From the sequence record MT764208.1: a DNA stretch of 64,000 nucleotides; one strand, given 5' to 3'. Shown here piece after piece: positions 4,757-39,407 of this stretch. The stretch is from Escherichia phage JEP8. Every line of letters starts with the position of its first letter. Within the stretch, counting starts at the first letter, position 1. Below the pieces are notes generated by a model. It saw only the letters and a program-made list of their open reading frames with translations. It was not told where the DNA came from and made no database searches. A program made the position numbers and the translations under genes.

Positions 4757-4785
4757 AGTATAACGGGGATTTCTCCCCGCGTCAA
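4757..4785 (-). promoter_or_regulatory. PeSL-like early promoter (TTGACG - GGGG..CCCC hairpin spacer - TATACT)
   Basis: Minus strand reads TTGACG cggggagaaatccccgt TATACT; 17-nt spacer forms a hairpin. Confidence 0.55.
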
Positions 4786-5811
4786 CTAACTTTTTGCGCT
4801 ATTTACTTCGGCTAAAAGCTCATCGGAGATACGCTTAACTGCCGCAAGTTCTTCCGGTTCTAGGTTTTGTTCTTCCAGATATTCATAGACCATCTGAATA
4901 GTGCTTTTAACTTCAATAACACCTGTTTCCTGTGATGCGCTACTCTCCAGCTTATGGACCACTTTTAGCTTGTGTACAACGGCCTCTAACGCGCTTTCTA
5001 ACTTAGTTAACCCATTATCAGCGACCGTTGCAATTAGGCGCACACTAAGCCCTTTAAAGCGTTCTACATCGATTTTATCATCTGACGGGTAAGTGATACG
5101 CACATGATAAGTTTTGTCATTCTGGATAAACTCCTTTTTGTGTGTATCTGTATCGAATACCCAAAAACCACGCGGATCATTTTCGTCGCCAGCCGTTAGT
5201 GTGTATGGTGTACCGATATACGTTACGTTACCGCCATCACTGATAGTATGAAAGTGACCGGAAAACACTTCACGGTATTTCTTGAGGAAGTCCGCGCTAT
5301 AACCTTCGGATTTTAACCCTTTATAGAAATAGTAGCCGGACAATTCCCAATGGCCTACACAATATTCGCTGAATGAATTTTGAATAAACTCTAAAACCTC
5401 GGATTTATTGTCATCACAAAACCACGGGAACAGGTCGAATGATACCCCATCAAAGGTAACTGTTTCCGGCTTATCAATAACCTTAATGCAATCATACTGG
5501 CTTAACACTTCGCGCGGTGCGTTAGGCTGGATCTTATTGCGTTTAAACATATCATGATTCCCGACCGTGATATAACAGGTGATTCCTGCCTCTTCCAGTA
5601 ATGGGATGACCTTAGTACGGTTAAATTTCATGGTTTCATGTGTGATAGCCTTGCGACAATCAAACCAATCCCCTGTTTGAATCCATATCTTAATACCATT
5701 TTCTTTAGAATAATCAACAGCTTTCTTGATCGTGTCTAAAATATACTCATGCACCCACGGATCATCGCCACCGATACCAGTATGCAGATCACCCAAAAGC
5801 AAAATTTTCAT
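4786..5811 (-). CDS. 47: Recombination endonuclease subunit gp47 (SbcD/Mre11-like nuclease)
   Basis: 341 aa; calcineurin-like phosphoesterase motifs GDLH, GDWFD, GNHD, GHFH; SD GAGGAAGAG; pairs with gp46. Confidence 0.9.
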   Translation of the reverse strand: MKILLLGDLHTGIGGDDPWVHEYILDTIKKAVDYSKENGIKIWIQTGDWFDCRKAITHETMKFNRTKVIPLLEEAGITCYITVGNHDMFKRNKIQPNAPREVLSQYDCIKVIDKPETVTFDGVSFDLFPWFCDDNKSEVLEFIQNSFSEYCVGHWELSGYYFYKGLKSEGYSADFLKKYREVFSGHFHTISDGGNVTYIGTPYTLTAGDENDPRGFWVFDTDTHKKEFIQNDKTYHVRITYPSDDKIDVERFKGLSVRLIATVADNGLTKLESALEAVVHKLKVVHKLESSASQETGVIEVKSTIQMVYEYLEEQNLEPEELAAVKRISDELLAEVNSAKS

Positions 5812-5855
5812 AGTCTCTTCCTCTCTTCGTTTTCGATGCTCTCACTATATCATAG

Positions 5856-5890
5856 AAAAATAAAAAGGGAAACCCCTTTCGGAGTCTCCC
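5856..5890 (-). terminator. Rho-independent terminator (minus strand)
   Basis: Minus-strand hairpin gggagactcc-GAAA-ggggtttccc followed by TTTTTATTTTT, just after ORF 5902-6189. Confidence 0.55.
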
Positions 5891-5901
5891 TTATAAAGCC
5901 A

Positions 5902-6189
5902 TTACAGCATACTTAATACCGTTTGCCGTGTACTAATCCACATAGCAGAAAGCAGTTCTGGCGTGTGTGGCTGTTTGTAGATATCACGTAACTTTCCGAT
6001 AGCGTAGATATACGCATCACGGTTATCATCGATGATAGCTTGTTCAGCCCACCGCTTAAGGCGTGCAATCTCTCGCGAGTTCTTACGCAAGATCTTTTCC
6101 GCTTTCTTAGCGGCTTTAGCCTCTAGTTCTGCTTGTACTTTGTCTACTTCATTCACTGCAATCTTGTCATGCTGTTCATCGTAAGTCAT
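5902..6189 (-). CDS. Hypothetical protein
   Basis: 95 aa, charged/coiled-coil-like; SD GAGG before ATG. Confidence 0.5.
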   Translation of the reverse strand: MTYDEQHDKIAVNEVDKVQAELEAKAAKKAEKILRKNSREIARLKRWAEQAIIDDNRDAYIYAIGKLRDIYKQPHTPELLSAMWISTRQTVLSML

Positions 6190-6190
6190 G

Positions 6191-6424
6191 TTATTTTACC
6201 TCTGGGATATAATCAATTATTAAAGAAAATTCATCTTCTGATACATTATAGCTATGTGAGATTGTACCCGTCAAGACCTCAAGATCCGGTGATTTGATAT
6301 TGCACGGATCGATAATCACCGGAACGCCGCAATCTCTCAAAAATAATTTGGCGAAATACGGCACGAGGTCAGTTTCAAACTCTGCTTCTTCCAGCAAACG
6401 GGAAATGTTAATTTTCAATCTCAT
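6191..6424 (-). CDS. Hypothetical protein
   Basis: 77-aa ORF overlapping the 3' end of gene 55 by 17 nt. Confidence 0.4.
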
Positions 6425-6941
6425 AAAATTGGTCCAGGCTAGGCAATTCCTCAGTCAATACATCTTCAACCTTTGGCGCTTTCGGTTTATTGACCGATTC
6501 CTCGTAGTTGTTGATTTTATCGTAAATGTCCTGTATGAATGCCTCATCAGCAATCTGGCACATATCAGCGTCGCGTTCGTCATATACATGATGCACAAAA
6601 TATTTGTATTTTGCGGCTGTCGCTGTTCTCTCTTTTTTAATGCGCTGTACAAAAGCATTAAAGCACGCTTGCGTGATGTAAGCATGAGGATTTTTATACT
6701 TTGTCTCGTCAAAATTAATCAAACCCTTGACCGCCGCTTCGATTCCGTCGTCGATCATTTCTTCGCGCCATGTTTGACTATAACCAGAAAAGTTAAAACG
6801 ACGTGATAGATTTTTAGAGATTTGCATAATTGCTAGGCCGATTTGATCGCTCATTGGAACTTGCCGACCTTCTGCTGCAATTTGTTGTTTCCAACGGCAA
6901 ATTTCTTCGTAAAGCTCTTTATTGTTTACATAATCAGACAC
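6408..6941 (-). CDS. 55: Late-transcription sigma factor gp55
   Basis: 177 aa; long stretch FNFSGY...[28 protein letters not shown] matches T4 gp55 as recalled. Apparent GTG start after SD GAGGG (no in-frame ATG upstream). Confidence 0.9.
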
Positions 6942-6981
6942 TTCGCACCCTCGCTATTATTTAGGAAATAACCCTTTCGGG

Positions 6982-8451
6982 CTATTCCCCATTACCATTA
7001 TACTTTCTTTGCTTAGTTATCCACACTCTAACCATCTCTACTGATTCACCGTCAGACGGATCAAGAGTTTTTCCTTTTTTCTTCATGCGATACTTAAATC
7101 CGTTAAATCTTGCATTCTCTTGCTCGTTAAAGTCGAACATCTTTTTAAATGATTTTCTCCCTTTACGCTCACCACATTCTAGCGGAATCATTCGGTCTGT
7201 TATTACATTGGCATTAGGTAGAAACGTTTTTAGATAATCCACCAACGCCCAATCAGGAACATATAGATTAACATTCTCCTTGCTCTCGTTGTCTCTCAGG
7301 TTACAACGCAAACATAATTGAAATGCTGGTTCCAGATAATCAGACACATGACGCGCTTTCAAAAACTCGTTTGTCGGGAGATCACAACTATTAGCAAGAC
7401 CTTTTAAAATATCAATCTCCCATCGTTGAGGGTTAAAGCTGAACATCACAGCAACATTTTTATGATGAATGTAAGAGTTAAGACCATAAGATCCGTAAGG
7501 TATCCGCTCACCAATACCATTTGTGCACGCTTCACGGTCCCGATTCACGGTATAAATGAAGTCATCGCCACATTCATTTTTAACCATATCAACAAGACGT
7601 TCAAAGGTATTGTTTGTTTCTGACTGGTGACGCGACCAGCGTTCGGAGTCAGTCATAAGGATGATGTTAACTCTATCTGTATTTTTATACTCTTTGAAAT
7701 ATAGTCTGGATTCTAGCGCACTCGGAACAAAATCGCAATTTGCATAGTATCGTAGATACTTCCCACTATATGTATCAAAGAGATTTGCACATGCTATCGT
7801 AACCTTTTTAAAGTCTCCCCACGTACCGTGTTTGTTATCGTTCAAGAAAACAATTTTCGACCCATTCTTCCGGTGTCCTTCGTTATGTTTTACCATAACG
7901 TTGATTTTCTTCTCTAATAACGCCTCATAAAGCCCTCTAAGAGAAGAATCGATCATATCAGTACCATCCTTTGCACTTTCTATCTTTTCTTTGATAGCGG
8001 CCTTCTCAGAGTCTTTTAGAACTAAGTTCTGTAGGCATTCCGATTCGTCGGCGATTGGTTCGCAATGCTTCGTGATAAGTTCAAGATTAGACTTAAACGG
8101 ATACTCATTAAATTCAACCAGTTGAGGAACTTCATCAATGTAAAGAGCATATTCACCAAACATTTTTGAACGTTCCATATTAGATAACGCTGTATGTGTA
8201 ATGAATATCACATCAGCACCGTCTTTAACTGATTGCATTATCGACGCTTGCACTGTCTTAAGGCTTCTTAGTCTTGTGCTATCGATCAAGACAGCACGAC
8301 CGCCCATTCTTTTAAACTTATTGTAAGATTGTTCACTTAAAACACGAGATGGCGAAGCAATAACCGCTTTTTCTTTTGTCTCTAGGACGTGGGAAAGTAT
8401 AGCATCAGTTTTCCCCGCCGCTGGCAATGCGATTAATGTTTCAATCTTCAT
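6982..8451 (-). CDS. P-loop NTPase of unknown function (helicase-like N-terminal motifs)
   Basis: 489 aa; Walker A-like ALPAAGKT, then IASPSR, Walker B-like ALYIDEV. Occupies the position immediately upstream of gene 55; no alpha-glucosyltransferase-like gene present. Confidence 0.6.
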   Translation of the reverse strand: MKIETLIALPAAGKTDAILSHVLETKEKAVIASPSRVLSEQSYNKFKRMGGRAVLIDSTRLRSLKTVQASIMQSVKDGADVIFITHTALSNMERSKMFGEYALYIDEVPQLVEFNEYPFKSNLELITKHCEPIADESECLQNLVLKDSEKAAIKEKIESAKDGTDMIDSSLRGLYEALLEKKINVMVKHNEGHRKNGSKIVFLNDNKHGTWGDFKKVTIACANLFDTYSGKYLRYYANCDFVPSALESRLYFKEYKNTDRVNIILMTDSERWSRHQSETNNTFERLVDMVKNECGDDFIYTVNRDREACTNGIGERIPYGSYGLNSYIHHKNVAVMFSFNPQRWEIDILKGLANSCDLPTNEFLKARHVSDYLEPAFQLCLRCNLRDNESKENVNLYVPDWALVDYLKTFLPNANVITDRMIPLECGERKGRKSFKKMFDFNEQENARFNGFKYRMKKKGKTLDPSDGESVEMVRVWITKQRKYNGNGE

Positions 8452-8907: not shown

Positions 8908-9177
8908 TCAATAATCATAAATCGCCCTCAGTTCTTTATAGCCTCCAATGTGCTCGTTGTCAATGAATATCTGGGGGTATACAAACCGGAGGCTCTTTGA
9001 GTTCAGCCTCCCCGCCAGTTCTTCAATCATATCACGGTCGGGAATAATGTCAACCCCGACCTGCTTGAATACTGGTTTAAGTGTATACGGAATACCCAGA
9101 TCATCCAGTAGCTTCATTGCACTAATACAACCATAACAATGATAAGCCTCTTTAGGTATACCGTATATCTCGATCAT
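8908..9177 (-). CDS. nrdH: Glutaredoxin-like protein (NrdH-like)
   Basis: 89 aa; CxxC active site (CYGC) near N-terminus; located next to the nrdG/nrdD cluster. Confidence 0.7.
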   Translation of the reverse strand: MIEIYGIPKEAYHCYGCISAMKLLDDLGIPYTLKPVFKQVGVDIIPDRDMIEELAGRLNSKSLRFVYPQIFIDNEHIGGYKELRAIYDY

Positions 9178-12162: not shown

Positions 12163-12204
12163 ATTTGATTCTCCTGTAAAGTTGTATCTCGTCTTGATGA
12201 ATAT

Positions 12205-12233
12205 AGTATAGGGGATCTCGCGATCCCCGTCAA
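12205..12233 (-). promoter_or_regulatory. PeSL-like early promoter
   Basis: Minus strand TTGACG ggggatcgcgagatcccc TATACT (hairpin spacer). Confidence 0.55.
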
Positions 12234-13325: not shown

Positions 13326-13354
13326 GTTGTCCTCTCGTTGTTTTCGATGTGAGC

Positions 13355-13382
13355 ATTATACATTAGCTAATCAAGTTGTCAA
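13355..13382 (-). promoter_or_regulatory. Early promoter (TTGACA-16-TATAAT) with conserved leader
   Basis: Minus strand TTGACA acttgattagctaatg TATAAT, then leader CACATCGAAAACAACGAGAGGA. Confidence 0.5.
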
Positions 13383-13392
13383 CACCCCAAAA

Positions 13393-13420
13393 CGAAAAAG
13401 CCGACCCTTTCGGATCGGCT
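13393..13420 (-). terminator. Rho-independent terminator downstream of nrdD
   Basis: Hairpin agccgatccgaaagggtcggct followed by TTTTTCGTTTT on the minus strand. Confidence 0.6.
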
Positions 13421-15829: not shown

Positions 15830-15859
15830 AATATAATCCTCTCGTTGTTAAGTGGGAGT

Positions 15860-15887
15860 ATTATAGCATACTCCCTTCGCATGTCAA
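15860..15887 (-). promoter_or_regulatory. PeSL-like early promoter
   Basis: Minus strand TTGACA ...gggagtatgc TATAAT actccc; hairpin spans the -10. Confidence 0.5.
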
Positions 15888-17093: not shown

Positions 17094-17122
17094 ATCTTAC
17101 TACTCCCGTTTCATCATGTCAA
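17094..17122 (-). promoter_or_regulatory. PeSL-like early promoter
   Basis: Minus strand TTGACA tgatgaaacgggagtag TAAGAT actccc. Confidence 0.55.
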
Positions 17123-20077: not shown

Positions 20078-20374
20078 TCATATCTCAGAGAATAGAATCT
20101 CTGTTAGCTTCACTGACTGCTCTCTGAATGTTAGCGTATACTCGAAAGGAAAGTCAACACCCAACTTCAAAAGAGAATAGCCTACCGCCTCTTTATGCTT
20201 ATCGGTTAGGGCGATCCTAACCAATTCCCGTTGAATCTCTTTAGGCGGTGAATGGATAGTAACACGGGTATCATGTAATGTCCAGTCACCATTTCGAATT
20301 AAGATTAACGGTTTATCATCATTGAAGATCACCGACCCCTTTCCGGTCGGTGAATGTTTTATATTAATCATCAA
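20078..20374 (-). CDS. Hypothetical protein
   Basis: 98-aa ORF, co-oriented. Confidence 0.45.
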   Translation of the reverse strand: MMINIKHSPTGKGSVIFNDDKPLILIRNGDWTLHDTRVTIHSPPKEIQRELVRIALTDKHKEAVGYSLLKLGVDFPFEYTLTFREQSVKLTEILFSEI

Positions 20375-21194: not shown

Positions 21195-21220
21195 AATATA
21201 ATCCTCACATCGTTCATTTG

Positions 21221-21257
21221 ATGCGGTCATTATATGATAACCGCATTTTCATGTCAA
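21221..21257 (-). promoter_or_regulatory. PeSL-like early promoter
   Basis: Minus strand TTGACA tgaaaatgcggttatca TATAAT; gcggt/accgc hairpin spans the -10. Confidence 0.45.
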
Positions 21258-21862: not shown

Positions 21863-21904
21863 TTTGATTCTCCTTAAGAAAGTGTGTTTCGTTTTGATGT
21901 GTGT

Positions 21905-21933
21905 AGTATAGGGGATCACCGATCCCCTGTCAA
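21905..21933 (-). promoter_or_regulatory. PeSL-like early promoter
   Basis: Minus strand TTGACA ggggatcggtgatcccc TATACT; perfect 17-nt hairpin spacer. Confidence 0.6.
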
Positions 21934-22509: not shown

Positions 22510-22766
22510 CACAGTTTCCTCAACCAGTTATTAAAGCGAGCAAACCATGACGCTTTTCGTGCTTCTTTTACTTTATGTGCACGCAAACCACTGAAACACC
22601 ATTCATAATCATCACTGAAATATGATTCAACAGGAACACCCGCATTTCGTAGTTCTCTGGTCTTTATCATGAATCCTTGACATAAGGGGCGACCTTCAAC
22701 AATGATAGGAAGTTTAACTTTTTCCATGAAAGTATACCCAGCACGGTCAATAATTTCAATTTTCAT
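22509..22766 (-). CDS. Hypothetical protein
   Basis: 85 aa; SD GGAGATAA. Confidence 0.45.
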   Translation of the reverse strand: MKIEIIDRAGYTFMEKVKLPIIVEGRPLCQGFMIKTRELRNAGVPVESYFSDDYEWCFSGLRAHKVKEARKASWFARFNNWLRKL

Positions 22767-23950: not shown

Positions 23951-23969
23951 CTTTGATTCTCCTTAGTTG

Positions 23970-23997
23970 GTATGCGTGCATTATAGCATTGTGATTA
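23970..23997 (-). promoter_or_regulatory. Early promoter (TTGACA-16/17-TATAAT) with conserved leader
   Basis: Minus strand TTGACA ...TATAAT then leader and GGAGAATCAAAG. Confidence 0.5.
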
Positions 23998-24051
23998 TCT
24001 TTGTCAACACCCAAAAACAAAAAAGGCTACCCCGAAGGATAGCCCATAAAA

Positions 24052-24831
24052 TTACACGCGAGCACCGTAGATCGTGCCTACTTTATCCCAGCGAGGGGCA
24101 TTGCCAGTAACAGCCTTACCAGCCGCTCCGCCATTATATTCCGATCCCCGTCCACGGATATTACATTTACCACCAGCGCCACCAGCATCACCACCGTTAC
24201 CGCCATTATATACACCGTTGACAGACCCTTTACCTGGCGCGGAAATAGTACCAGCAGTAGCACCCTGTTCCATTTTAGCAGACCCACCAGCAGCGCCAAA
24301 TGGACGACCGCCGCCACCTCCAAAAGTCAATTTCATTTGTGGAAAAGGAGACCAGTATCCTCCGCCACCACCACCACCGCCACCGCAAATAGCGCCGTTA
24401 TTTGTGATGCGTAAGCGTGTGCCTATACCGTTGTTAATTGCATTACCACCAGCACCACCAGCGGAGTTATTGCCACCATTACCACCACGCCCCCAAACAT
24501 GAACACCTGCATTAATGATCAATGTTACATATTCGTTTGTTAACGAGCTAGGGAAGTCAAGACAAGGAACGCCAGTAGATTGGGAAACAATATTACCCGT
24601 GATAGTAATTACTACCGGAGTAGATCCTTGTGCTTTCATCCAGTTAATAAGAGTGTCTTTATTGTAAGAGTTACTAGCACCAATGCTATAATGAATCTCT
24701 TTAGAGCGTCCGACCATTGCCGACATATACGCCGGACGACCTAAGCGTACAGCTTGCATTGCGGCGCTCATCCACCGTTGACCAGTCTCGGACACCGCAG
24801 ATGATCCTACCCATCCAGAAGATATTGCCAT
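24052..24831 (-). CDS. Glycine-rich protein resembling T2/T6-type gp38 tail-fibre adhesin
   Basis: 259 aa; N-terminus MAISSGWVGSSAVSETGQRWMSAAMQAVRLG..., then glycine-rich blocks (GRGGNGGNNSAGGAGGN, GGGGGGGGGYW, GGGGGRPFGAAGG, GGNGGDAGGAGG). Resemblance to gp38 is from memory, not a search. Confidence 0.55.
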   Translation of the reverse strand: MAISSGWVGSSAVSETGQRWMSAAMQAVRLGRPAYMSAMVGRSKEIHYSIGASNSYNKDTLINWMKAQGSTPVVITITGNIVSQSTGVPCLDFPSSLTNEYVTLIINAGVHVWGRGGNGGNNSAGGAGGNAINNGIGTRLRITNNGAICGGGGGGGGGYWSPFPQMKLTFGGGGGRPFGAAGGSAKMEQGATAGTISAPGKGSVNGVYNGGNGGDAGGAGGKCNIRGRGSEYNGGAAGKAVTGNAPRWDKVGTIYGARV

Positions 24832-24845
24832 AAAATTTCCTCACA

Positions 24846-24868
24846 AGAAAAGCCCCAATTAAGGGGCA
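24846..24868 (-). terminator. Rho-independent terminator (minus strand)
   Basis: Hairpin gccccttaattggggc followed by TTTTCTTGT, directly upstream of the gp38-like gene. Confidence 0.5.
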
Positions 24869-24885
24869 TTGATTGATAATATTAC

Positions 24886-25107
24886 TTAGATGACCTCTGC
24901 TTCACCATCCAGGAAGAAAGACCATGTTTTGTTAGGATAGCGAAGCGCCCATGATTCAGCAGTTTTAACACCAGCTTCGAACAATTGACGGCTGGTTACT
25001 TTAGCCATACCATCTTCGATGGCAACGTTTTCAATAATCATCGGGTACTTAGCGCCACGCATGAAACCGAAACCAGCGGAAGATTTGATAATTTTAACAG
25101 TTGCCAT
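24886..25107 (-). CDS. Hypothetical protein
   Basis: 73 aa after cassette RBS AGGAGAATCAAAA. Confidence 0.5.
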   Translation of the reverse strand: MATVKIIKSSAGFGFMRGAKYPMIIENVAIEDGMAKVTSRQLFEAGVKTAESWALRYPNKTWSFFLDGEAEVI

Positions 25108-25148
25108 TTTTGATTCTCCTAGAAAGTGTATCTCGTTTCGATGTGTGT

Positions 25149-25177
25149 ATTATGCAATAACACCGGAACGCTGTCAA
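25149..25177 (-). promoter_or_regulatory. Early promoter (TTGACA-17-CATAAT) with conserved leader
   Basis: Minus strand TTGACA gcgttccggtgttattg CATAAT then CACACATCGAAACGAGATACAC leader. Confidence 0.5.
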
Positions 25178-26361: not shown

Positions 26362-26390
26362 TTTGATTCTCCTTTGTTGTCGATGTATGC

Positions 26391-26419
26391 ATTATGCTAT
26401 ACCCTATTCCGGTTGTCAA
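26391..26419 (-). promoter_or_regulatory. Early promoter (TTGACA-17-CATAAT)
   Basis: Minus strand TTGACA accggaatagggtatag CATAAT. Confidence 0.5.
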
Positions 26420-26430
26420 CACCTAAAAAC

Positions 26431-26460
26431 GAAAAAGCCACCCTTTCGGATGGCTTTTGA
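26431..26460 (-). terminator. Rho-independent terminator (possibly bidirectional)
   Basis: Hairpin agccatccgaaagggtggct flanked by A-run and T-run. Confidence 0.55.
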
Positions 26461-26688
26461 TTATATTTTATTCTAATCCATTTGTATAGTAGTGTTTGAA
26501 TCGACCTTTGCTAAACTCGTTAAACATAGTAACCAATTTACCACCACTTTCCAATGATAGCACTTCCTCGTCTTAGACGGGTCTTCCGATTCGGCAGTAA
26601 TTGAACACGCGAAAGTATGAGGAAGCCAAATAGTTGTGTTAATGCTAGTATTCTTTTACTTCTGGTATGCATCCCACAGTGACTAACA

Positions 26689-27087
26689 TTAAGCCAGTCG
26701 AGTGAGTTTATAAATTGTTTTAAAGCATAGAGCTTTGATATCGTCTAAAACGCTCTGTAACGAGCTATCAACATCATTATAAATCTCACTAGCCATTTGC
26801 GTTAACTCTTGCAAATAGGCAATTTCGCTCATCTCCTTGCGGACGACCAACGTTGGCTGATAACGACCAGTGATCCCAATATTGGTTTCAGTGAAATCAT
26901 CAACCAATTCTTGCATTTCAAGATAGAACTCTTCTAGAGCCTTATGTTTTGCATAAGATCCAGGACCAGTTACTCCAAAATGCGCAGAATGCATATAAGT
27001 AACACTCATCAGACATTCACCGATAAAGCGGTCAACTTTATTAGCTTTCCCCTCTTCGGACGTCTTTAGAAAATCAATGAATTTCAT
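26689..27087 (-). CDS. Hypothetical protein
   Basis: Start moved to MKFIDFLKTSEEG after SD GGAGAA. Confidence 0.45.
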   Translation of the reverse strand: MKFIDFLKTSEEGKANKVDRFIGECLMSVTYMHSAHFGVTGPGSYAKHKALEEFYLEMQELVDDFTETNIGITGRYQPTLVVRKEMSEIAYLQELTQMASEIYNDVDSSLQSVLDDIKALCFKTIYKLTRLA

Positions 27088-29564: not shown

Positions 29565-30155
29565 TCAATAGCGTTTAGTCTTAAGAATGCCTTTACTCTT
29601 TAGATGGTTAGCCTTTTTTAGTACGTCATCAGCATAACCTAATCCGGCTTTATAGTTCCATCCAGCATTGTAAGAAGCTAGCGCGAGTCTGATATTACCG
29701 TTTCGAATATCCAGCCAGTATGCTAACTCATCCATCGCGTAGAATGCAGAAACCTCGCGATTCATGATAAAGTTGATAGTCTGGCGATCACTCATTTTAA
29801 CACCGCGCTTTGCATTTTTCGCTTTCACCGTTTTAAGGTAATTTTGAAATAATCCATAAGCATGATGATTTTTCTTTGGTGCTAAGTTTGCACCCGCGCT
29901 TGATTCTTGCCATGCGATACCCGCCAGGATGTGACCTAAACCCTTTCCGTTATAGCGAATATTCGGATGGTACTTTTTCAACTTACCGCTTTTCTCGAAT
30001 TGCTCGCCGTATTGATAGGCGAAATGTAAATTATCTAGTTGGTGTGCTGTAAAGTTGTCTATCGGCGCTTTTTTGATCGGTGCGCTAGTCGATGCGTGTG
30101 TAGCACCAACGGCTAGTGACAGACTCAATACTATCGCTTTTAGAACTTTTAACAT
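29565..30155 (-). CDS. Secreted lytic transglycosylase-like protein (SLT domain)
   Basis: 196 aa; signal peptide MLKVLKAIVLSLSLAVGATHA; SLT motifs AWQESS, YGLFQ, ASYNAG. Confidence 0.6.
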   Translation of the reverse strand: MLKVLKAIVLSLSLAVGATHASTSAPIKKAPIDNFTAHQLDNLHFAYQYGEQFEKSGKLKKYHPNIRYNGKGLGHILAGIAWQESSAGANLAPKKNHHAYGLFQNYLKTVKAKNAKRGVKMSDRQTINFIMNREVSAFYAMDELAYWLDIRNGNIRLALASYNAGWNYKAGLGYADDVLKKANHLKSKGILKTKRY

Positions 30156-30240
30156 TAATTTCTCCTGTTTGGCTTAACTTTCTGATTTCATAATATAGCC
30201 CTATCACCAGAAAGTCAAGCATTAACTCAACCAATTTCCA

Positions 30241-31003: not shown

Positions 31004-31031
31004 TTTAATACTCCTTTGTTTCGATGGGGGT

Positions 31032-31060
31032 ATATTACTACCCCCGATCATGTGTGTCAA
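31032..31060 (-). promoter_or_regulatory. PeSL-like early promoter
   Basis: Minus strand TTGACA cacatgatcgggggtag TAATAT; gggggta..taccccc hairpin. Confidence 0.5.
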
Positions 31061-32217: not shown

Positions 32218-32303
32218 AATTAAACCCTCAGTTGATTAAGAGATTGCATCATACCATCATAAAAATAAAAAGCCAACCCTTTTCGGATTGGCTTGATGAA
32301 AAA

Positions 32304-33403: not shown

Positions 33404-33793
33404 TTATTTTGGATCTGGGTATTTGCTGTGTGGTAATTGTAGATGAGGACCATCTTTAAAACTAGTCCAATCCCCACCCCATTCAACAGGAACACCCAAT
33501 TCTCGACCAGCTTGTTTAAATGCATCAGCGATCATGCGGTAATATTTCATGTTCCATGTATCTTTATCTTTCGGATACGCTACAACGTCAACCGCGAAAC
33601 CGTGAAGATGACGAGATTTCATAGTCTTAGATTTACCTTCCGCAACATATTTCTTTTGCGTTTCTAGACTACGCACACCTTCCGTAATACCAAAATCGAC
33701 CGGAGTCAGTTCTAATGCACGATGAACGACTTTTACCAGGTCTGGATGTACACCAACAAGCCGATCTTTGCTTCTTTGAGATAATCTAAACAT
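33404..33793 (-). CDS. Endolysin, L-alanyl-D-glutamate peptidase (peptidase M15, T5-like)
   Basis: 129 aa; VHPDLVKVVHRALELTPVDFGITEGVRS...SRHLHGFAVDV...WGGDW resembles T5-type endolysin; HxxxxxxD and H motifs for Zn binding. Confidence 0.75.
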   Translation of the reverse strand: MFRLSQRSKDRLVGVHPDLVKVVHRALELTPVDFGITEGVRSLETQKKYVAEGKSKTMKSRHLHGFAVDVVAYPKDKDTWNMKYYRMIADAFKQAGRELGVPVEWGGDWTSFKDGPHLQLPHSKYPDPK

Positions 33794-33821: not shown

Positions 33822-34013
33822 TTAGATTCCTGCAATCCTGCATAGAGTTCTTGTATTAGCACCAATCAGGATAGCATTGACTACAACCATTCCCCAATCA
33901 ACCCACGGATTATTATAAATGCTAAATCCGTTTGTTATGCCAAATACAAGCATTCCGGTACACATACTCAGAGCAATAATCAACATCACGGTAAAACCAA
34001 ATGCAAATTTCAT
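33822..34013 (-). CDS. Small membrane protein
   Basis: 63 aa, two hydrophobic helices. Confidence 0.45.
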   Translation of the reverse strand: MKFAFGFTVMLIIALSMCTGMLVFGITNGFSIYNNPWVDWGMVVVNAILIGANTRTLCRIAGI

Positions 34014-34014
34014 A

Positions 34015-34281
34015 TTATTTTCCTTTTCTCTGTTTACGTTTATAAAAGTAATACATTACCTCATCGCGTCCGGTGATCCAACATGCTAGGGCAGTAAACA
34101 GGTTTACAATTCCCAACACACCTACTGACGCGGCGCTGTCAACAGACATAGGAACAGTAAAGGCCATAGCTAACATAGCAATGCCACAAATGACATTAAG
34201 CACCATTATAATAAGACCGAAGAAAACCATTGTCAATCCTCCCAAATAAGAAAACCAACAATCACGCCAGTGATAAGACAT
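34015..34281 (-). CDS. Small membrane protein
   Basis: 88 aa, hydrophobic, basic C-terminus. Confidence 0.45.
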   Translation of the reverse strand: MSYHWRDCWFSYLGGLTMVFFGLIIMVLNVICGIAMLAMAFTVPMSVDSAASVGVLGIVNLFTALACWITGRDEVMYYFYKRKQRKGK

Positions 34282-34412
34282 GATGCGCCGCTAATAAGAC
34301 AACCAGCACCAAGTGATTCCCACCAGATCAGAGAAGCGACAATAACGCAAATTCCCCAGACTACCGCAATCACAACATAGGCAAGGGTCGCCCAAAACAT
34401 ATATTTGTTCAT
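34233..34412 (-). CDS. Small membrane protein (59 aa)
   Basis: Below ORF-track cutoff; ATG overlaps the upstream stop in ATGA; MNKYMFWATLAYVVIAVVWGICVIVASLIWW... Confidence 0.4.
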   Translation of the reverse strand: MNKYMFWATLAYVVIAVVWGICVIVASLIWWESLGAGCLISGASCLITGVIVGFLIWED

Positions 34413-34597
34413 AATAAACCCAACTCACCAAACAAATAAGAAAAAAGCCATATCAACAGAAACGAGGCAATTGATCCGACAAGCAAAATGATATTAGAGA
34501 ATCCACCGTCTACCCAGGCAACAAAACAGAATACGCTAGTATAGAAGCATAAACCCATTACAAAGCATACTATAAGCAACCATAGATAAAACGTCAT
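34409..34597 (-). CDS. Small membrane protein
   Basis: 62 aa, hydrophobic. Confidence 0.45.
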   Translation of the reverse strand: MTFYLWLLIVCFVMGLCFYTSVFCFVAWVDGGFSNIILLVGSIASFLLIWLFSYLFGELGLL

Positions 34598-34658
34598 AGA
34601 AAGTCCTCCAGCGAGATAAATTAGTGCGGGTAGTGGAATGTACTACCCGCTTTGTTAA

Positions 34659-34817
34659 TCAACGCAGAGCTTCTTCTAGCGCGATCCCAAACCATCCACA
34701 AACAACGCCCATACAGACAGCTACAAGAAGATTCATTCTCTCTTTAGGGATCATTGCAATCATAACAACAACCATACAGAAAGCCATTACCATTGATGTT
34801 AACATTTGTTCAACCAT
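34659..34817 (-). CDS. Small membrane protein (52 aa)
   Basis: Below ORF-track cutoff; SD AAGGTG; MVEQMLTSMVMAFCMVVVMIAMIPKE... Confidence 0.4.
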   Translation of the reverse strand: MVEQMLTSMVMAFCMVVVMIAMIPKERMNLLVAVCMGVVCGWFGIALEEALR

Positions 34818-34819
34818 TA

Positions 34820-35152
34820 TCACACCTTTAAAGTCATAGACGCATAAACATTAATGCCAGGCCAGTTAGGATCGCAATTATACTCAACATCCCACAAATA
34901 AAGCGGTTTAGATGTATCAGCCAAGTTTTTAAAATCTTCTACCCACATTTCAAGGCTATATGATGGATAAACTAGGCTATCATATCCGCCGTAACGTTGG
35001 CCTACTGGTCGGTCAGTAAAAACTACCTCAAGATCCGGTAATTCTTTTTCAAGGATAACCGCCAGCGCATAAATCAGACGGTCTTCCTTGTTACGCTGCC
35101 GAAGGACCGTTGTCAGTTGGTTTTTCTGGTTCACTAGCAAGCACCTCCACAT
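34820..35152 (-). CDS. Hypothetical protein (start uncertain)
   Basis: ORF track 34820-35158 begins with GTG; overlaps the upstream ORF. Confidence 0.35.
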   Translation of the reverse strand: MWRCLLVNQKNQLTTVLRQRNKEDRLIYALAVILEKELPDLEVVFTDRPVGQRYGGYDSLVYPSYSLEMWVEDFKNLADTSKPLYLWDVEYNCDPNWPGINVYASMTLKV

Positions 35153-35411
35153 TTTCACAGAATGAAATTTTCACAGACACAATTTTACCATAAGTGAAGA
35201 ATGAATATACATTATCGATATATTCAACGTCACCTACAATCACATCAAACTGCGGATCAGCAACCGCCGCAACATATTCTACCAGTTCATCAAGAGAATG
35301 CAACTTAATTTCATCAATTCGGCTGTATTTGGTTGCATCTTTGATTTTAAAACCACGTTCTTTCAGCTTATCAATTAGAATTTCACGCGGAGTTTCAAAC
35401 AGTTTGCTCAT
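35091..35411 (-). CDS. Hypothetical protein
   Basis: 106 aa; SD GAGGA. Confidence 0.45.
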   Translation of the reverse strand: MSKLFETPREILIDKLKERGFKIKDATKYSRIDEIKLHSLDELVEYVAAVADPQFDVIVGDVEYIDNVYSFFTYGKIVSVKISFCENVEVLASEPEKPTDNGPSAA

Positions 35412-35432
35412 AATATAATCCTCACATTAAAT

Positions 35433-35633
35433 CTAAAATTTGTTAACGACGAATTGCATAATTAGACTAATCATAAACATTGCAAACCAAGTATAAATGC
35501 AACAGATAAAAGCTACATACAATTCAATCTGGTCAGAGAATACACCGGGTAAAAGCATTAGCAAAATAACAACAGTAAAGACGCTAGCGATACCCGCAAC
35601 AAAACCAATATCATTTTTACTAATCGTCATCAA
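35433..35633 (-). CDS. Small membrane protein
   Basis: 66 aa, two hydrophobic helices. Confidence 0.45.
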   Translation of the reverse strand: MMTISKNDIGFVAGIASVFTVVILLMLLPGVFSDQIELYVAFICCIYTWFAMFMISLIMQFVVNKF

Positions 35634-35827
35634 GTCACCGTTTTGTAAAGAAACACAATAAAATCCAAGACAAGAAAGACAGTGTAAATGATCATCGTCA
35701 AGACAGTAAACACTGTCAAATTTTCATCGTTAGTTAATTCATAGTCGCCCATCCATACAATAACAAGATATAGCATTGAAAGAATGGAAGCACCTACTAA
35801 GTTAAAAAACATATTCTTTAGCGTCAT
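35630..35827 (-). CDS. Small membrane protein
   Basis: 65 aa; ATGA overlap with upstream gene. Confidence 0.45.
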   Translation of the reverse strand: MTLKNMFFNLVGASILSMLYLVIVWMGDYELTNDENLTVFTVLTMIIYTVFLVLDFIVFLYKTVT

Positions 35828-35828
35828 G

Positions 35829-36011
35829 TTAACAATCCTCGCGGCTTAAGTCAACAGCAATTGCATACAGAATAATGAATATACTAGCAGATCCGAGAAT
35901 CAATGCACCGTCACATTTTGAAACTCGCTCATCAAAATGCAACATTATCCATCCGAGGATGTTAAAGGCGCACACCGCGCCTATGTTATCTAACCAATTA
36001 ATCTTTTTCAT
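35829..36011 (-). CDS. Small membrane protein
   Basis: 60 aa, hydrophobic. Confidence 0.4.
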   Translation of the reverse strand: MKKINWLDNIGAVCAFNILGWIMLHFDERVSKCDGALILGSASIFIILYAIAVDLSREDC

Positions 36012-36346: not shown

Positions 36347-36387
36347 TTGATACTCCTTAGTAGTTCGTGTTTCGTTTCGATGGGTGT

Positions 36388-36416
36388 ATTATGCTATACA
36401 CCCTCTCGTGTGTCAA
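36388..36416 (-). promoter_or_regulatory. PeSL-like early promoter
   Basis: Minus strand TTGACA cacgagagggtgtatag CATAAT; gggtgta..tacaccc hairpin spans the -10. Confidence 0.5.
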
Positions 36417-36424
36417 CAACTTTT

Positions 36425-36613
36425 TTAGTCTTTTTTCATAATTTCTAGAGCAGTTTCTACAGCACCTTTCCAACCCTCCCACATAATGGACATAGTAATG
36501 AAGTTAAAGCACCCGCAGGAATCAGCCTTTTTAGAAATAAACCATTCTGCAAACTCTTCGCTCATACCATGCTCTTTAGCGGATTCGCGTAATTGTTCAA
36601 TTTGGTCTTCCAT
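36425..36613 (-). CDS. Hypothetical protein
   Basis: 62-aa ORF. Confidence 0.4.
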   Translation of the reverse strand: MEDQIEQLRESAKEHGMSEEFAEWFISKKADSCGCFNFITMSIMWEGWKGAVETALEIMKKD

Positions 36614-36622
36614 AGTATCACC

Positions 36623-36823
36623 TCAACACTTAACGTTATTCAAACGATTTTGAAAGTACATATAGCAAGCATAATTTTGTTTTGGCTGTACCGTATCAGA
36701 TAAGCACGCTTTTACAGCCTCGCGGTCCGATGGGTCTACGCCCTCAGCGTTAAGCAATGCTAAGATCTGATAATAGCGTACTCTCAGTTGCGTTAATGGT
36801 TTCTCTCCCATAAAACCCTCCAA
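36623..36823 (-). CDS. Hypothetical protein
   Basis: 66-aa ORF. Confidence 0.4.
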   Translation of the reverse strand: MEGFMGEKPLTQLRVRYYQILALLNAEGVDPSDREAVKACLSDTVQPKQNYACYMYFQNRLNNVKC

Positions 36824-37051
36824 TTAAAGTTGTTCTGCAATGTATGCGGTGCATTTACGGAGTTTAGCCATCGCACCACCTTTCATGTCGCTTGCACCTA
36901 CAAGGTTCATAATCTCTAAGCGGTCAGCCGGATTCAGTCTAGTAGCCCAGATCTGGTTAGCCAGTTCCATTTTACCCATCTGCGGTTCCATCTCTAACAG
37001 TTCGCGCTCAAATTCGATAATTTCTTTTGCTGCGTCTTTAAAGTTAATCAT
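36824..37051 (-). CDS. Hypothetical protein
   Basis: 75-aa ORF. Confidence 0.45.
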   Translation of the reverse strand: MINFKDAAKEIIEFERELLEMEPQMGKMELANQIWATRLNPADRLEIMNLVGASDMKGGAMAKLRKCTAYIAEQL

Positions 37052-37080
37052 TTTGGTCCTCCCGTTTCGTTGATGGTTAT

Positions 37081-37109
37081 ATTGTAGGGGAGTTATCCTC
37101 CCCTGTCAA
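37081..37109 (-). promoter_or_regulatory. PeSL-like early promoter
   Basis: Minus strand TTGACA ggggaggataactcccc TACAAT; perfect hairpin spacer. Confidence 0.55.
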
Positions 37110-37117
37110 CACTTTTA

Positions 37118-37303
37118 TCAGAAATATGCAATATAGTTTGCCAGTCCTACAGAGTCATCATTCGGCATTGCTTTTACTGCCAGTTCAAACCCTGCTTCAA
37201 CTTTCTGTTTAGCGGATTCTTCGTTATAACCCCAGATTACCAGAATAGCTACTACGTTTTCTTTGCTTACTGCTTTAAGTGCTTTAGTGATGCGACGTGC
37301 CAT
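37118..37303 (-). CDS. Hypothetical protein
   Basis: 61 aa after cassette RBS GGAGAATCAAATT. Confidence 0.45.
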   Translation of the reverse strand: MARRITKALKAVSKENVVAILVIWGYNEESAKQKVEAGFELAVKAMPNDDSVGLANYIAYF

Positions 37304-37349
37304 AATTTGATTCTCCGTTTAAGAAAGTGTGTTTCGTTTCGATGGGTGT

Positions 37350-37378
37350 ATTATGCTATAGGCCGGATCTGGTGTCAA
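37350..37378 (-). promoter_or_regulatory. Early promoter (TTGACA-17-CATAAT)
   Basis: Minus strand TTGACA ccagatccggcctatag CATAAT then conserved leader. Confidence 0.5.
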
Positions 37379-37403
37379 CAACTTTTTTAAAAAAATTTTA
37401 GGC

Positions 37404-37431
37404 AATAAAAAAGCCACTCCGAAGAGTGGCT
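37404..37431 (-). terminator. Rho-independent terminator
   Basis: Hairpin agccactcttcggagtggct followed by TTTTTTATT on the minus strand. Confidence 0.55.
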
Positions 37432-37576
37432 TATAGGGAAGGTAGCGAATCTTCCTTGTCTCCAACCTGCTAGCGGACTAGCAAGTGAATGCTTTAGCGT
37501 ACCGGATCGCCCACATACGCTGTAATAAATGCGGCTAGGTGACGTCCAAATCATTCTAACCGCGCTGTCTTTAGTT
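37432..37576 (-). ncRNA. Candidate small structured RNA (late-promoter to terminator, no ORF)
   Basis: About 150-190 nt without an ORF of 12 aa or more; bounded upstream by minus-strand TATAAATA (37583-37590) and downstream by the terminator; four or five predicted hairpins; GC-richer than flanks. Confidence 0.25.
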
Positions 37577-37581
37577 CACTA

Positions 37582-37800
37582 TTATTTATATCGCTTTCTC
37601 TCGCGACGTTTTTGATCTTCTTCCTTGATAGAGTTAAATGCATCAAAAAGACACATGACACTGATAATGAACATAACCGTATTTTCTACGATATCCCACG
37701 GCTTCGCATCAGTACAGATCCCCCAAACGGTAAGAAATGCAAATAAGGCAGAAGAGATCACAAGCATGATACTTGCTAAGATATAAAAAGTCATTTTCAT
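37582..37800 (-). CDS. Small membrane protein
   Basis: 72 aa; hydrophobic with basic C-terminus (KRRERKRYK). Confidence 0.45.
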   Translation of the reverse strand: MKMTFYILASIMLVISSALFAFLTVWGICTDAKPWDIVENTVMFIISVMCLFDAFNSIKEEDQKRRERKRYK

Positions 37801-37991
37801 GGTTTTACCTCAATTCTTCGATATTCATCACACATCCACGCAGTAAGCAAGAATCCCAACACATAAGCAACAAAATACGTTAATGCTTCTTCTGGTTCGG
37901 TGCTATGCGCCATCATCAGACCAGCGAGAAAGGTCTTAACAATTACATTTAAAATAATTAGCCACGCAAATAATTTCATCGTTTGCCCCAT
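37797..37991 (-). CDS. Small membrane protein
   Basis: 64 aa; ATGA overlap with upstream gene. Confidence 0.45.
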   Translation of the reverse strand: MGQTMKLFAWLIILNVIVKTFLAGLMMAHSTEPEEALTYFVAYVLGFLLTAWMCDEYRRIEVKP

Positions 37992-38200
37992 TTCGGACGA
38001 GTCTGTTCAAACTTATACATTACGTAACAATCTCGAATCATCCACGTAACAAGAGCACCAGTCAACACAGACAACACACAGAAGAAGTAAAACGGTCCGG
38101 TTGCATTATCAACATGAGCAAGCCATGTAAAGAAAACACATGCAAGGAATGTAAAGAACATCATAAAGCACAAAAAAGCGAAATATTTTATACTACTCAT
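37976..38200 (-). CDS. Small membrane protein
   Basis: ORF track starts at TTG; ATG at MSSIKYFAFLCFMMFF... Confidence 0.45.
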   Translation of the reverse strand: MSSIKYFAFLCFMMFFTFLACVFFTWLAHVDNATGPFYFFCVLSVLTGALVTWMIRDCYVMYKFEQTRPKWGKR

Positions 38201-38307
38201 ATCGCCACCATACAACAGATCATAAGAAAACCCAACGCAATAAGAATTGCATCAAATTTAGTGAACTCCGGTCCACCTATCAACATCATTCGTTCCTGTT
38301 CAGTCAT
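38197..38307 (-). CDS. Small membrane protein (36 aa)
   Basis: Below ORF-track cutoff; ATGA overlaps at both ends; MTEQERMMLIGGPEFTKFDAILIALGFLMICCMVAI. Confidence 0.3.
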   Translation of the reverse strand: MTEQERMMLIGGPEFTKFDAILIALGFLMICCMVAI

Positions 38308-38546
38308 AGATCACAGATCCATCTAAAAGCACCACATACAGCGATCAGGAGTGTAGGAACACTTGAGAAGAAAACCAACGTACAAAAATCATCTAGTGTA
38401 ATACCGGAATAACTACCGACTGCAATCACACCGATGATCAGACACAGAAAGAAAACAAATGCAATCAGAAACAAAGTATTGCTAAACAGTTTAGTGATCA
38501 TTAGACACCCCACGACGATCAATTTCAAAAACTTTTTTATCATCAA
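38304..38546 (-). CDS. Small membrane protein
   Basis: 80 aa, three hydrophobic segments. Confidence 0.45.
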   Translation of the reverse strand: MMIKKFLKLIVVGCLMITKLFSNTLFLIAFVFFLCLIIGVIAVGSYSGITLDDFCTLVFFSSVPTLLIAVCGAFRWICDL

Positions 38547-38694
38547 CGAAGCATGTCACAACTGCCTCGTTGACTTCCGCAAATTGTTGTGTTACCCACT
38601 TAAGGTCAGATCGAAACAATGTTCTATTAATAACAAATGTTTTACCGCTCTTATCCTTACCCATAAATTTTGCTTTAACCATATCCAATTCCAT
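38491..38694 (-). CDS. Hypothetical protein
   Basis: 67 aa; SD AAGGTGA. Confidence 0.45.
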   Translation of the reverse strand: MELDMVKAKFMGKDKSGKTFVINRTLFRSDLKWVTQQFAEVNEAVVTCFVDDKKVFEIDRRGVSNDH

Positions 38695-38703
38695 ATTATC
38701 ACC

Positions 38704-38862
38704 TTATTTGCTAATCGCTAAACCTAATCCGAAGAGAGCACCCGAGGCTACAGTATACCCGAAAGTTTCAAAGGCAGTAAAGACATCTAAGCCACCAGCT
38801 AACAGAGTTGCAGTAAACAGAGTACCAGCTACGAACATAAAAGTTTTACCGATAAATTTCAT
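38704..38862 (-). CDS. Small membrane/secreted protein (52 aa)
   Basis: Below ORF-track cutoff; cassette RBS GGAGAATCAAAAA; MKFIGKTFMFVAGTLFTATLLAGG... Confidence 0.4.
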   Translation of the reverse strand: MKFIGKTFMFVAGTLFTATLLAGGLDVFTAFETFGYTVASGALFGLGLAISK

Positions 38863-38898
38863 TTTTTGATTCTCCTTTCGTTTCGTTTCGATGGGAGT

Positions 38899-38927
38899 AT
38901 CTTACTACCCCCGTTTCATGTTGTCAA
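38899..38927 (-). promoter_or_regulatory. PeSL-like early promoter
   Basis: Minus strand TTGACA acatgaaacgggggtag TAAGAT then conserved CGAAACGAAACGAAAGGAG leader. Confidence 0.5.
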
Positions 38928-38933
38928 CTATTT

Positions 38934-39308
38934 TTAAGAATATTTTACTTCGTCTACAATGTCTTTCATGACATTGATTTCCATTCCGGTCAGAACACGT
39001 TGGAACATGTGCTGCACATACGCTTTCAGATATTCATTTGATGGCTTGCTATCGAAAGTCTTTTTAGTGTAGTAGTCATCACCGAAAGCTACTGTAATTA
39101 CATTTTCGTCGTCGTTCCAAGCGATATAAGCAAATTTGCCGTTATCCCAGAAGCGAGCACTAATTGCTACTTTTGTTGAATCGAATCCTACTTCGCTGTG
39201 AGATTCAAGAACTACTTGCGTGCCAGTTTCTTTATGAATGTAGTAGCGGGATACTAAGTCAAAGTTACGGGTGTAGTGACATTCGAATTTATCTTTAAAC
39301 ATCATCAT
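38934..39308 (-). CDS. Hypothetical protein
   Basis: 124 aa; cassette RBS GGAGAATCAAAAA. Confidence 0.5.
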   Translation of the reverse strand: MMMFKDKFECHYTRNFDLVSRYYIHKETGTQVVLESHSEVGFDSTKVAISARFWDNGKFAYIAWNDDENVITVAFGDDYYTKKTFDSKPSNEYLKAYVQHMFQRVLTGMEINVMKDIVDEVKYS

Positions 39309-39342
39309 TTTTTGATTCTCCTAAGTGTGTTTCGATGTGTGC

Positions 39343-39371
39343 ATTATGCTATAGTCGTTTATGGTTGTCAA
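39343..39371 (-). promoter_or_regulatory. Early promoter (TTGACA-17-CATAAT)
   Basis: Minus strand TTGACA accataaacgactatag CATAAT. Confidence 0.5.
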
Positions 39372-39381
39372 CACATAAAAA

Positions 39382-39407
39382 CAAAAAACCCCGAAAAATT
39401 TTCGGGG
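39382..39407 (-). terminator. Rho-independent terminator downstream of gp57B
   Basis: Hairpin ccccgaaaatttttcgggg followed by TTTTTTGTTTTT on the minus strand. Confidence 0.6.

Follow-up and report, generated by a model that had tools for sequence, protein, structure and literature searches.

Escherichia phage JEP8 (sequence record MT764208.1) carries, within the 64,000-nucleotide (nt) stretch analyzed here (the window), a family of repeated promoter-and-stem-loop sites that are very probably PeSLs (promoter-early stem-loops), the composite cassettes from which RB49-like T4-type phages transcribe early genes. Seventeen strong cassettes lie on the minus strand between 4731 and 39408, accompanied by a weaker relative, the regB promoter at 30190-30218, and one extra cassette is found on the plus strand at 53305-53398. 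Counts out of 17 refer to the strong minus-strand cassettes, and counts out of 18 add the weaker regB promoter; individual cassettes are cited by a position inside their interval in the table. An initial annotation, made from the sequence itself, had placed at least 17 promoter-stem-loop sites on the minus strand in 4757-39407 and had recognized them as PeSLs, and both proposals are borne out. Position 4757 is the -10 element of the first cassette and 39407 falls 1 base short of the end of the last terminator stem (39388-39408), while the plus-strand cassette lies beyond that range.

The repetition is evident from several searches. The composite pattern TTGACR-N16-17-YANNNT-N5-CATC gave 15 matches against 0.03 expected, and the motif AGGAGAATCAAAATG, at 2 mismatches or fewer, gave 7 against 0.2 expected. 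A strict promoter expression (TTGAC[AG]-N16-18-TAnnnT) matched the minus strand at 26 sites and the plus strand at 5; a relaxed promoter scan matched 80 and 34 times, respectively, compared with 33 ± 5 in Markov-2 simulations. An independent consensus scanner ranked the same minus-strand sites at the top. The cassettes sit in the minus-strand early region, 5' of small hypothetical open reading frames (ORFs).

Identification of these sites as PeSLs rests on the kinship of the phage, on synteny, and on anatomy. Pieces of 6 kb and 25 kb from the window matched ~58 complete Krischvirus genomes, including RB49, phi1, JSE, GEC-3S, Sf20, and JK32, at 94-97% identity, and the only matches outside Krischvirus were to a segment of the gp38 adhesin gene (77-83%). 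On these matches, the window is from an RB49-like Krischvirus, a T4-type coliphage. A minus-strand block reaching ~43.5 kb holds early and replication-associated genes (46, 47, 55, nrdH/G/D, 49, dam, tk, regB, dmd, and 57A/B) and is followed by plus-strand virion genes; a tRNA scan and an Rfam scan of the window returned no tRNA gene and no Rfam family. We compared the window with eight relatives (L001-L008), namely, RB49 (L002), phi1 (L003), JSE, GEC-3S, Brandy, JK32, KMB43, and G2248. RB49 and phi1 each have a near-identical orthologue of every cassette at the syntenic position, the cassettes are conserved also in the other six, and these promoters and stems or terminators are already marked in the records of GEC-3S and G2248.

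PeSLs were first defined in RB49 and phi1 by Arbiol, Comeau, Kutateladze, Adamia, and Krisch (2010, Genome Biol Evol 2:140; PMC2839356), who counted ~51-52 per genome and described a stem-loop that can take any of five positions with respect to the promoter and often reads poly-G and then poly-C. The JEP8 cassettes belong to the same genus and occupy orthologous, syntenic sites. They share with the published elements an A+T-rich stretch with an upstream stop codon, sigma-70 -35 and -10 hexamers, a poly-G/poly-C stem-loop, a Shine-Dalgarno (SD) sequence, and an ATG. The likeness extends to the positional subclasses, stems between -35 and -10 or overlapping -10 being the commonest, and to the distribution, with a shared strand, a preference for hyperplastic regions, a few copies among the virion genes, and a link to nrdD. 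Nothing categorical separates the two sets, the differences being alleles of JEP8's own, a weakened stem at 17122 and a G:U pair at 38927. Judged from the sequence, the defining features of a PeSL in location, anatomy, and orthology are all present; for its role as a recombination point, the evidence is mixed. The PeSL-like motifs of T4/PST and KVP40/nt-1 (Comeau, Arbiol, and Krisch 2014; PMC4122927) are also composite terminator/promoter motifs that lie in hyperplastic regions and are proposed exchange points, but they come from different genera and have sequences of their own. When IMG/VR was scanned for the cassette outside the genus with an exact 27-mer common to two cassettes, one contig only, of Krischvirus size, was found.

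All 17 have the TTGAC[AG] hexamer of the initial annotation (TTGACA in 15 and TTGACG in 2), and its 17-nt spacer holds for 14, the other 3 having 16 nt. The -10 hexamer is CATAAT in 5 cassettes, TATAAT in 4, TATACT in 3, and a different sequence in 5, with 4 to 6 of 6 positions matching TATAAT. Exactly 5 nt past -10, 14 of the 17 cassettes have CATC, which is the really conserved part of the start region. A longer conserved leader had been claimed, but the 15-nt sequence ATCGAAACGAAACAC is exact in only 2 cassettes, is present with 2 mismatches or fewer in 5, and is not significant by itself (7 matches versus 3.0 expected). Leaders are 26-46 nt long and end in a GGAG- or GAGG-type SD and an ATG. 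The ribosome-binding site (RBS) proposed for the family, AGGAGAATCAAA, is found at 1 mismatch or fewer in 10 of the 17 cassettes; a second family, GAGGATTATATT, accounts for 3.

A stable stem-loop is found in 16 of the 18 cassettes. In class A (4/17; 4757, 12205, 21905, and 37081), the hairpin lies inside the spacer. In class B (7/17; 15860, 17094, 18004, 21229, 31032, 36388, and 38899), a stem of 7-10 bp, weakened in one copy, encloses the -10 hexamer region as its loop. In class T (5/17; 13355, 23980, 26391, 37350, and 39343), a hairpin followed by a T-run lies directly upstream of -35, and the promoter core is stem-free; in 4 of these 5, a conserved 16-nt T-rich linker (TTTTYGTTTTTRGGTG-like) connects the terminator to -35. 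The claim that the spacer is often a perfect GGGG..CCCC hairpin was thus overstated, being true of class A, and the claim that several cassettes are preceded by a terminator corresponds to class T. Among the 9 nt that follow the stem, 6-8 are T in class T and 1-4 in classes A and B. The class T stems, with a G+C-rich stem and a U-run, are intrinsic (Rho-independent) terminators by definition, as are free-standing elements of the same makeup (G+C stem and T-run) at 5865-5892, 24852-24867, and 32270-32294. Embedded stems and upstream terminators never occur in the same cassette.

The description of the sites as intergenic stands only roughly. Of the 20 nt upstream of the cassettes, 10-19 are A or T. 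For classes A and B, the upstream gene's stop codon falls either inside the -35 hexamer or 0-18 nt away: the TGA within TTGACA is itself the stop codon at 15887 and 17122, and the stop codon abuts the hexamer at 4785 and 31060. In the class T cassettes with a called upstream ORF (13382, 24007, and 39371), the stop codon is 43-44 nt from -35, and the gap is filled by the terminator.

Folding and comparison indicate that the stems are real structures. Fold z-scores were -2.7 to -5.4 for ten promoter cores and -1.9 to -4.2 for the five upstream terminators. A MAFFT alignment of the class B stems, keyed on the -10 hexamer, mixed two stem registers, and an arm-swap test was used instead. Over the seven loop-proximal positions, 100% were paired when an arm was matched with its own partner, versus 49% with the arms of other cassettes (57-64% within a class); since the arms pair fully only with their own partners, the complementarity is not a mere by-product of G-runs and C-runs. 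The 16 stems of the window comprise 122 Watson-Crick pairs, 8 G:U pairs, and no mismatches. The sense RNA was more stable than the antisense RNA in 12 stems, equally stable in 3, and less stable in 1. This predominance of the sense strand favors RNA structure over a DNA cruciform and argues that the stems are sense-strand RNA structures of the minus-strand transcripts. Over the eight relatives, the stems are almost invariant. Changes fall in the loops with the stem kept (GGT, ACC, or CACGT at 21905; GCGA or TCGC at 12205) or switch between G:U and G:C or A:U (21229, 18004, and 38899), and two only, in the JEP8 copy at 17094 and the KMB43 copy at 37081, break a pair.

Cassettes of the JEP8 window, with coordinates in the window; z, fold z-score; MFE, minimum free energy.
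Interval	Strand	Class	Sequence elements	z	Context
4731..4785	-	A	TTGACG, spacer hairpin GCGGGGA-GAAA-TCCCCGT, TATACT, 26-nt leader, SD GGGAGG	-3.4 (MFE -12.9)	Drives the ORF035-038 block 3' of gene 47; promoter annotated in GEC-3S
12163..12233	-	A	TTGACG, spacer hairpin GGGGATC-GCGA-GATCCCC, TATACT, CATC, AGGAGAATCAAA	-3.3	Upstream of ORF053/nrdG
13326..13420	-	T	Terminator stem 13399-13420 with T-run, 16-nt T-rich linker, TTGACA-N16-TATAAT, CATC		Just downstream of nrdD; 7 T among 9 nt after stem
15830..15887	-	B	Stem GGGAGTAT/ATACTCCC around -10; RBS GAGGATTATATT	-4.1	TGA within -35 hexamer is the frd.2 stop codon
17063..17122	-	B, weakened here	3' arm ACTCAC here, ACTCCC in 8/8 relatives; stem broken	-0.7 (relatives' type, ~-4)	Drives frd.2; TGA of -35 is the upstream stop codon
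17973..18032	-	B	9-bp stem ATGGGAGTA/TGCTCCCAT around -10 TAAAAT, one U:G pair	-5.4	Downstream of gene 49
21195..21257	-	B	10-bp stem ATGCGGTTAT/ATGACCGCAT around TATAAT; RBS GAGGATTATATT	-4.9	
21863..21933	-	A	Spacer hairpin AGGGGATC-GGT-GATCCCCT, TATACT, leader ATCAAAACGAAACAC, AGGAGAATCAAAATG	-3.5	
23951..24045	-	T	Terminator stem 24024-24045, TTGACA-N16-TATAAT, AGGAGAATCAAA		Downstream of gp38
25108..25177	-	No strong G+C stem	TTGACA-N17-CATAAT, CATCGAAACGAGATAC, AGGAGAATCAAAA	-0.1 (core)	Sole hairpin is A+T-rich and upstream
26362..26458	-	T	Terminator stem 26433-26458, 16-nt linker, TTGACA-N17-CATAAT, AGGAGAATCAAAATG	-3.9 (upstream)	
30156..30218	-	Weaker family relative (regB promoter)	TTGACT-N17-TATTAT, SD GGAG; lacks CATC and the family leader		Also annotated as promoter in GEC-3S
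31004..31060	-	B	Stem GGGGGTA/TACCCCC around TAATAT, then CATCGAAAC, SD AGGAGTATTAAA	-4.5	
36347..36416	-	B	Stem GGGTGTAT/ATACACCC around CATAAT; exact leader ATCGAAACGAAACAC	-4.9	32 identical nt in common with the 37378 cassette
37052..37109	-	A	Spacer hairpin AGGGGAG-GATAA-CTCCCCT, TACAAT, CATC, SD GGGAGGACCAAA	-4.7	SD is GGGAGAATCAAA in six relatives instead of GGGAGGACCAAA
37304..37432	-	T	Terminator stem 37411-37432, long A/T linker, TTGACA-N17-CATAAT, exact leader, GGAGAATCAAA	-4.2 (upstream)	
38863..38927	-	B	Stem GGGGGTA/TACTCCC around TAAGAT, AGGAGAATCAAAAA	-2.7	Upstream of ORF124/dmd; G:U pair here where relatives have G:C
39309..39408	-	T	Terminator stem 39388-39408, 16-nt linker, TTGACA-N17-CATAAT, AGGAGAATCAAAAA	-2.9 (upstream)	Downstream of gene 57B
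53305..53398	+	T	Terminator-like stem GCCAATTC-GAGA-GAGTTGGC, TTGACA-N17-TATAAT, CATC, GGAGG, ATG at 53399		Within virion-gene block; three non-structural ORFs follow (53399-54815), one methyltransferase-like

In the model we favor, a PeSL unit has an A+T-rich stretch, within or next to which the upstream gene usually stops, and a near-consensus sigma-70 promoter that unmodified host RNA polymerase would use straight after infection. It also has a conserved start region (CATC five nt after -10) with an A/C-rich unstructured leader, a strong GGAG-type RBS, and one stable G+C-rich stem-loop. Because it lies upstream of the unit's own start site, an embedded stem can be present only in RNA reading in from the preceding unit; most likely, it would terminate, attenuate, or 3'-protect this incoming transcript, so that a separate promoter would serve each block of ~five small early genes.

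Promoter function is well grounded by analogy, given the consensus hexamers and the consensus of RB49 early promoters, which has G at -33, T or C at -12, and C richness from -3 to -1 and agrees with 5'-end mapping (Nolan et al. 2006, PMC1524935). The features of this consensus are all present in the JEP8 cassettes, but the work on T4-related early promoters (PMC1524935; Desplats et al. 2002, cited there) describes the promoter alone, without regarding the stem-loop, leader, and RBS linked to it as parts of a single repeated unit. In RB49/phi1, promoter and terminator-attenuator activity was shown for PeSL193/192, PeSL206/205, and PeSL211/210, and cloned PeSLs were so strong that promoter-down mutations arose in most clones (PMC2839356). 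The embedded stems never accompany a true terminator and occur where a separate one would not fit, which suggests that they insulate the unit as a terminator does, but more compactly. Since they have no U-run, we infer termination by the class A and B stems rather than read it from a canonical signal; these stems may also have a role in 3'-end protection or processing.

Several findings weigh against this interpretation. The spacer hairpins, whose folding and covariation were at stake in the initial annotation, do fold stably and keep their complementarity among paralogues, but no double compensatory changes were seen among orthologues in the eight relatives, where divergence is too low, and the covariation evidence comes from paralogues only. 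The cassettes at 25177 and 30218 have no convincing stem, and that of the 17122 copy is broken. The class A and B stems fall outside the definition of an intrinsic terminator, and the only published terminator assay concerned one stem-loop from elsewhere in the genome.

The class A and B stems might instead not be terminators at all but sense RNA elements that stabilize 3' ends or mark processing, or else DNA-level tuners of the promoter, acting as a cruciform or a G+C-rich spacer; we consider this unlikely. The missing U-run is in its favor, and so is the position of the stems upstream of their own start, by which they occur solely in incoming RNA. The G:U bias and the greater stability of sense than of antisense RNA are signs of an RNA structure and not of duplex DNA. 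The 8 G:T pairs, which would be mismatches in a cruciform, disfavor the DNA-level version. On the other side, the stems never share a cassette with a true terminator in the corresponding place, which suggests the same job, and one PeSL stem-loop cut downstream lacZ expression as strongly as rrnB T1 (PMC2839356).

It is somewhat more doubtful still that the embedded stems constitute a distinct device, in which sense RNA hairpins lacking a U-run define or protect the 3' ends of read-in transcripts and the RBS is a target of RegB; if so, a cassette of ~60 nt would determine three things for a gene block: its start, its upstream limit, and its early shut-off. The SD sequences of early genes are cleaved by RegB at GGAG, and an A-rich 3' context stimulates the cleavage (Uzan and Miller 2010, PMC3014915). 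Ten cassettes have AGGAGAATCAAA(A), a GGAG and A-rich RBS that resembles strong RegB/S1 sites, and the phage encodes regB (an orthologue of the RB49 gene, ~29565-30155). By analogy, RegB may cleave JEP8 transcripts at the GGAG of these RBSs, but the likeness to T4 is a resemblance only, and RB49 has one of the divergent forms of RegB.

The initial annotation went on to say that the cassettes likely explain how the accessory genes were acquired, and this part finds little support in the events compared here. We compared positions 1-46000 of the window with the eight relatives; with genomes 94-97% identical, these comparisons cover recent events only. Within 4757-39407, there are 13 differences of roughly 100 bp or more, and only 2 of them touch a cassette. 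Homing-endonuclease insertions in relatives make up five (at window positions 5810, 14418, 18829, 32230-32257, and 33419-33443), and another four are patches within genes or duplications. In one, ORF074, a tandem paralogue of ORF073 (73% identical), is missing, and in the last, an internal deletion has reduced a 2.1-kb gene, whole in Brandy, JK32, and G2248, to a ~270-nt remnant (26420-26700). On these events, cassette recombination appears to contribute little to gene-content differences in the region.

Some details of these loci were recorded in passing. JEP8 lacks all five homing-endonuclease insertions (HNH/AP2-type genes, one of which splits nrdD in JSE), and two of the sites are just 3' of free-standing terminators (5865-5892 and 32270-32294). 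Window positions 22594-22766 align to two places in RB49 (98.8% and 72.7%), JEP8 keeping one of the ORF073/ORF074 pair. The seemingly intergenic gap at 26420-26700 is made of the 5' and 3' ends of the ~2.1-kb ORF, and phi1 ORF84.1 lies in the same remnant. A 2-kb insertion beside the 26391 cassette was considered as a PeSL-associated event and rejected, being the internal deletion of the gene that Brandy, JK32, and G2248 have intact.

The first of the two cassette-linked events is a divergence boundary (12252) in JSE and KMB43, 19-25 nt upstream of the -35 element of the 12233 cassette. The second, at the gp38 locus, exchanges 911 bp for 37 bp in 14 of 58 genomes (KMB43, G2248, and 12 others). 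The replaced sequence (window 23974-24886) spans gp38 with a terminator, together with a class T cassette's own terminator and its promoter as far as -10; the replacing sequence is a class A PeSL with the hairpin core CGGGGAGAAATCCCCG, as in the 4757 cassette (L007, 25035-25125; L008, ~20275-20313). Homology resumes between -10 and the leader, the interval to which Arbiol et al. mapped a mini-circle crossover (PMC2839356), and the other breakpoint is the stop codon of ORF080.

Gene conversion between cassettes is also seen. In Brandy, the 17094 and 18004 orthologues have an identical 41-nt promoter core, whereas these two loci differ in the window; in JK32, the 17094 orthologue has the leader of 15860, that is, a leader converted to its neighbor's type; and the 37081 RBS has two forms, of which one matches the family consensus. 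Identical stretches between cassettes reach 32, 23, and 21 nt at the longest, with 23 nt for the 17094/15860 pair. With up to 32 nt of shared identity, cassettes probably recombine with one another now and then, giving gene conversion and, occasionally, replacement of a module.

That the cassettes are the main vehicle of accessory-gene gain and loss, through PeSL-by-PeSL recombination and with mini-circles as vectors, seems to us a poor prospect. Arbiol et al. described mini-circles and found a contiguous PeSL at 10 of 14 differential ORFans of RB49/phi1 (PMC2839356), and the gp38 swap for a PeSL of a different class, the boundary near 12233, and the conversions in Brandy and JK32 point the same way. 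Against this stand the few large events at cassettes and the nature of the others, endonuclease insertions, loss of a tandem paralogue, and deletion within a gene, while the gp38 event itself has a single breakpoint in a PeSL. Mosaicism is found throughout, with 153 distinct divergence boundaries in 35 kb. In a hidden Markov model segmentation of 7 relatives, the boundaries were not significantly enriched at cassettes (16 versus 10.5 expected; p = 0.06, ranging to 0.26), several of them being the cassettes' own variable spacers. The best-placed deletion junction predicted for such recombination, 37378 by 36416 with its 32-nt identity, was found in 0 of 58 genomes.

It is extremely improbable that a dimeric DNA-binding regulator, of the phage or of the host, uses the inverted repeats as operators to shut off early promoters: the repeats do cover the spacer or -10, typical operator positions, and the shut-off mechanism of T4 early promoters is described as incompletely understood (PMC3014915), but the arms differ while their complementarity is kept (GGGGATC, GGGGAG, CGGGGA, GGGAGTA, GCGGTTAT, and GGGTGTAT), the register slides by 1-2 nt relative to -10 as well as between the spacer and -10, the loop varies from 3 to 6 nt in the window and up to 8 nt in two relatives, G:T pairs are tolerated, and five cassettes are entirely without the repeat, so that with no conserved half-site at a fixed position, a sequence-specific protein operator was rejected.

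Other elements were noted outside the catalogue. In relatives, upstream of gene 45 and just past the left end of the window (L006 ~410; L007 ~136), a promoter, TTGACT-N17-TATAAT, has, downstream of -10, a stem-loop with a T-run, GGGGAGTG-TAAA-TACTCCCC; this is the fifth published PeSL subclass, unrepresented within 4757-39407. Inside the nrdH coding sequence (8960-9075, minus strand), a promoter-like TTGACA-N16-TATGAT has its -35 looped out by a 7-bp stem, GGTCGGG/CCCGACC, and is followed by a second stem, GGAGGCT/AGCCTCC; an exact-string search found the sequence in 6 of the 8 relatives. A 25-nt hairpin at 34626-34650, GCGGGTAGT-ggaatgt-ACTACCCGC, whose G+C-rich stem is nearly palindromic, scores as a terminator on both strands and lies within a stretch of unusual A-over-T skew (34001-36000, AT skew 0.20).

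The repetition of the cassettes, their anatomy, the conservation of their structure, and their orthology are established in this analysis, while promoter activity, the action of one stem-loop as a terminator, and mini-circles were shown in RB49/phi1 (PMC2839356). The finding is the correct recognition, in a new isolate, of an element already known in this phage group since 2010. To that knowledge, it adds a precise catalogue of the cassettes in the JEP8 genome, the observation that embedded stems and true terminators substitute for each other, and the indication that the stems look like sense-strand RNA structures, the embedded ones having no U-runs. In the sequenced relatives, homing endonucleases and ordinary deletions outweigh cassette shuffling in changing the gene content of the region, a result that tempers the popular model of PeSL shuffling.

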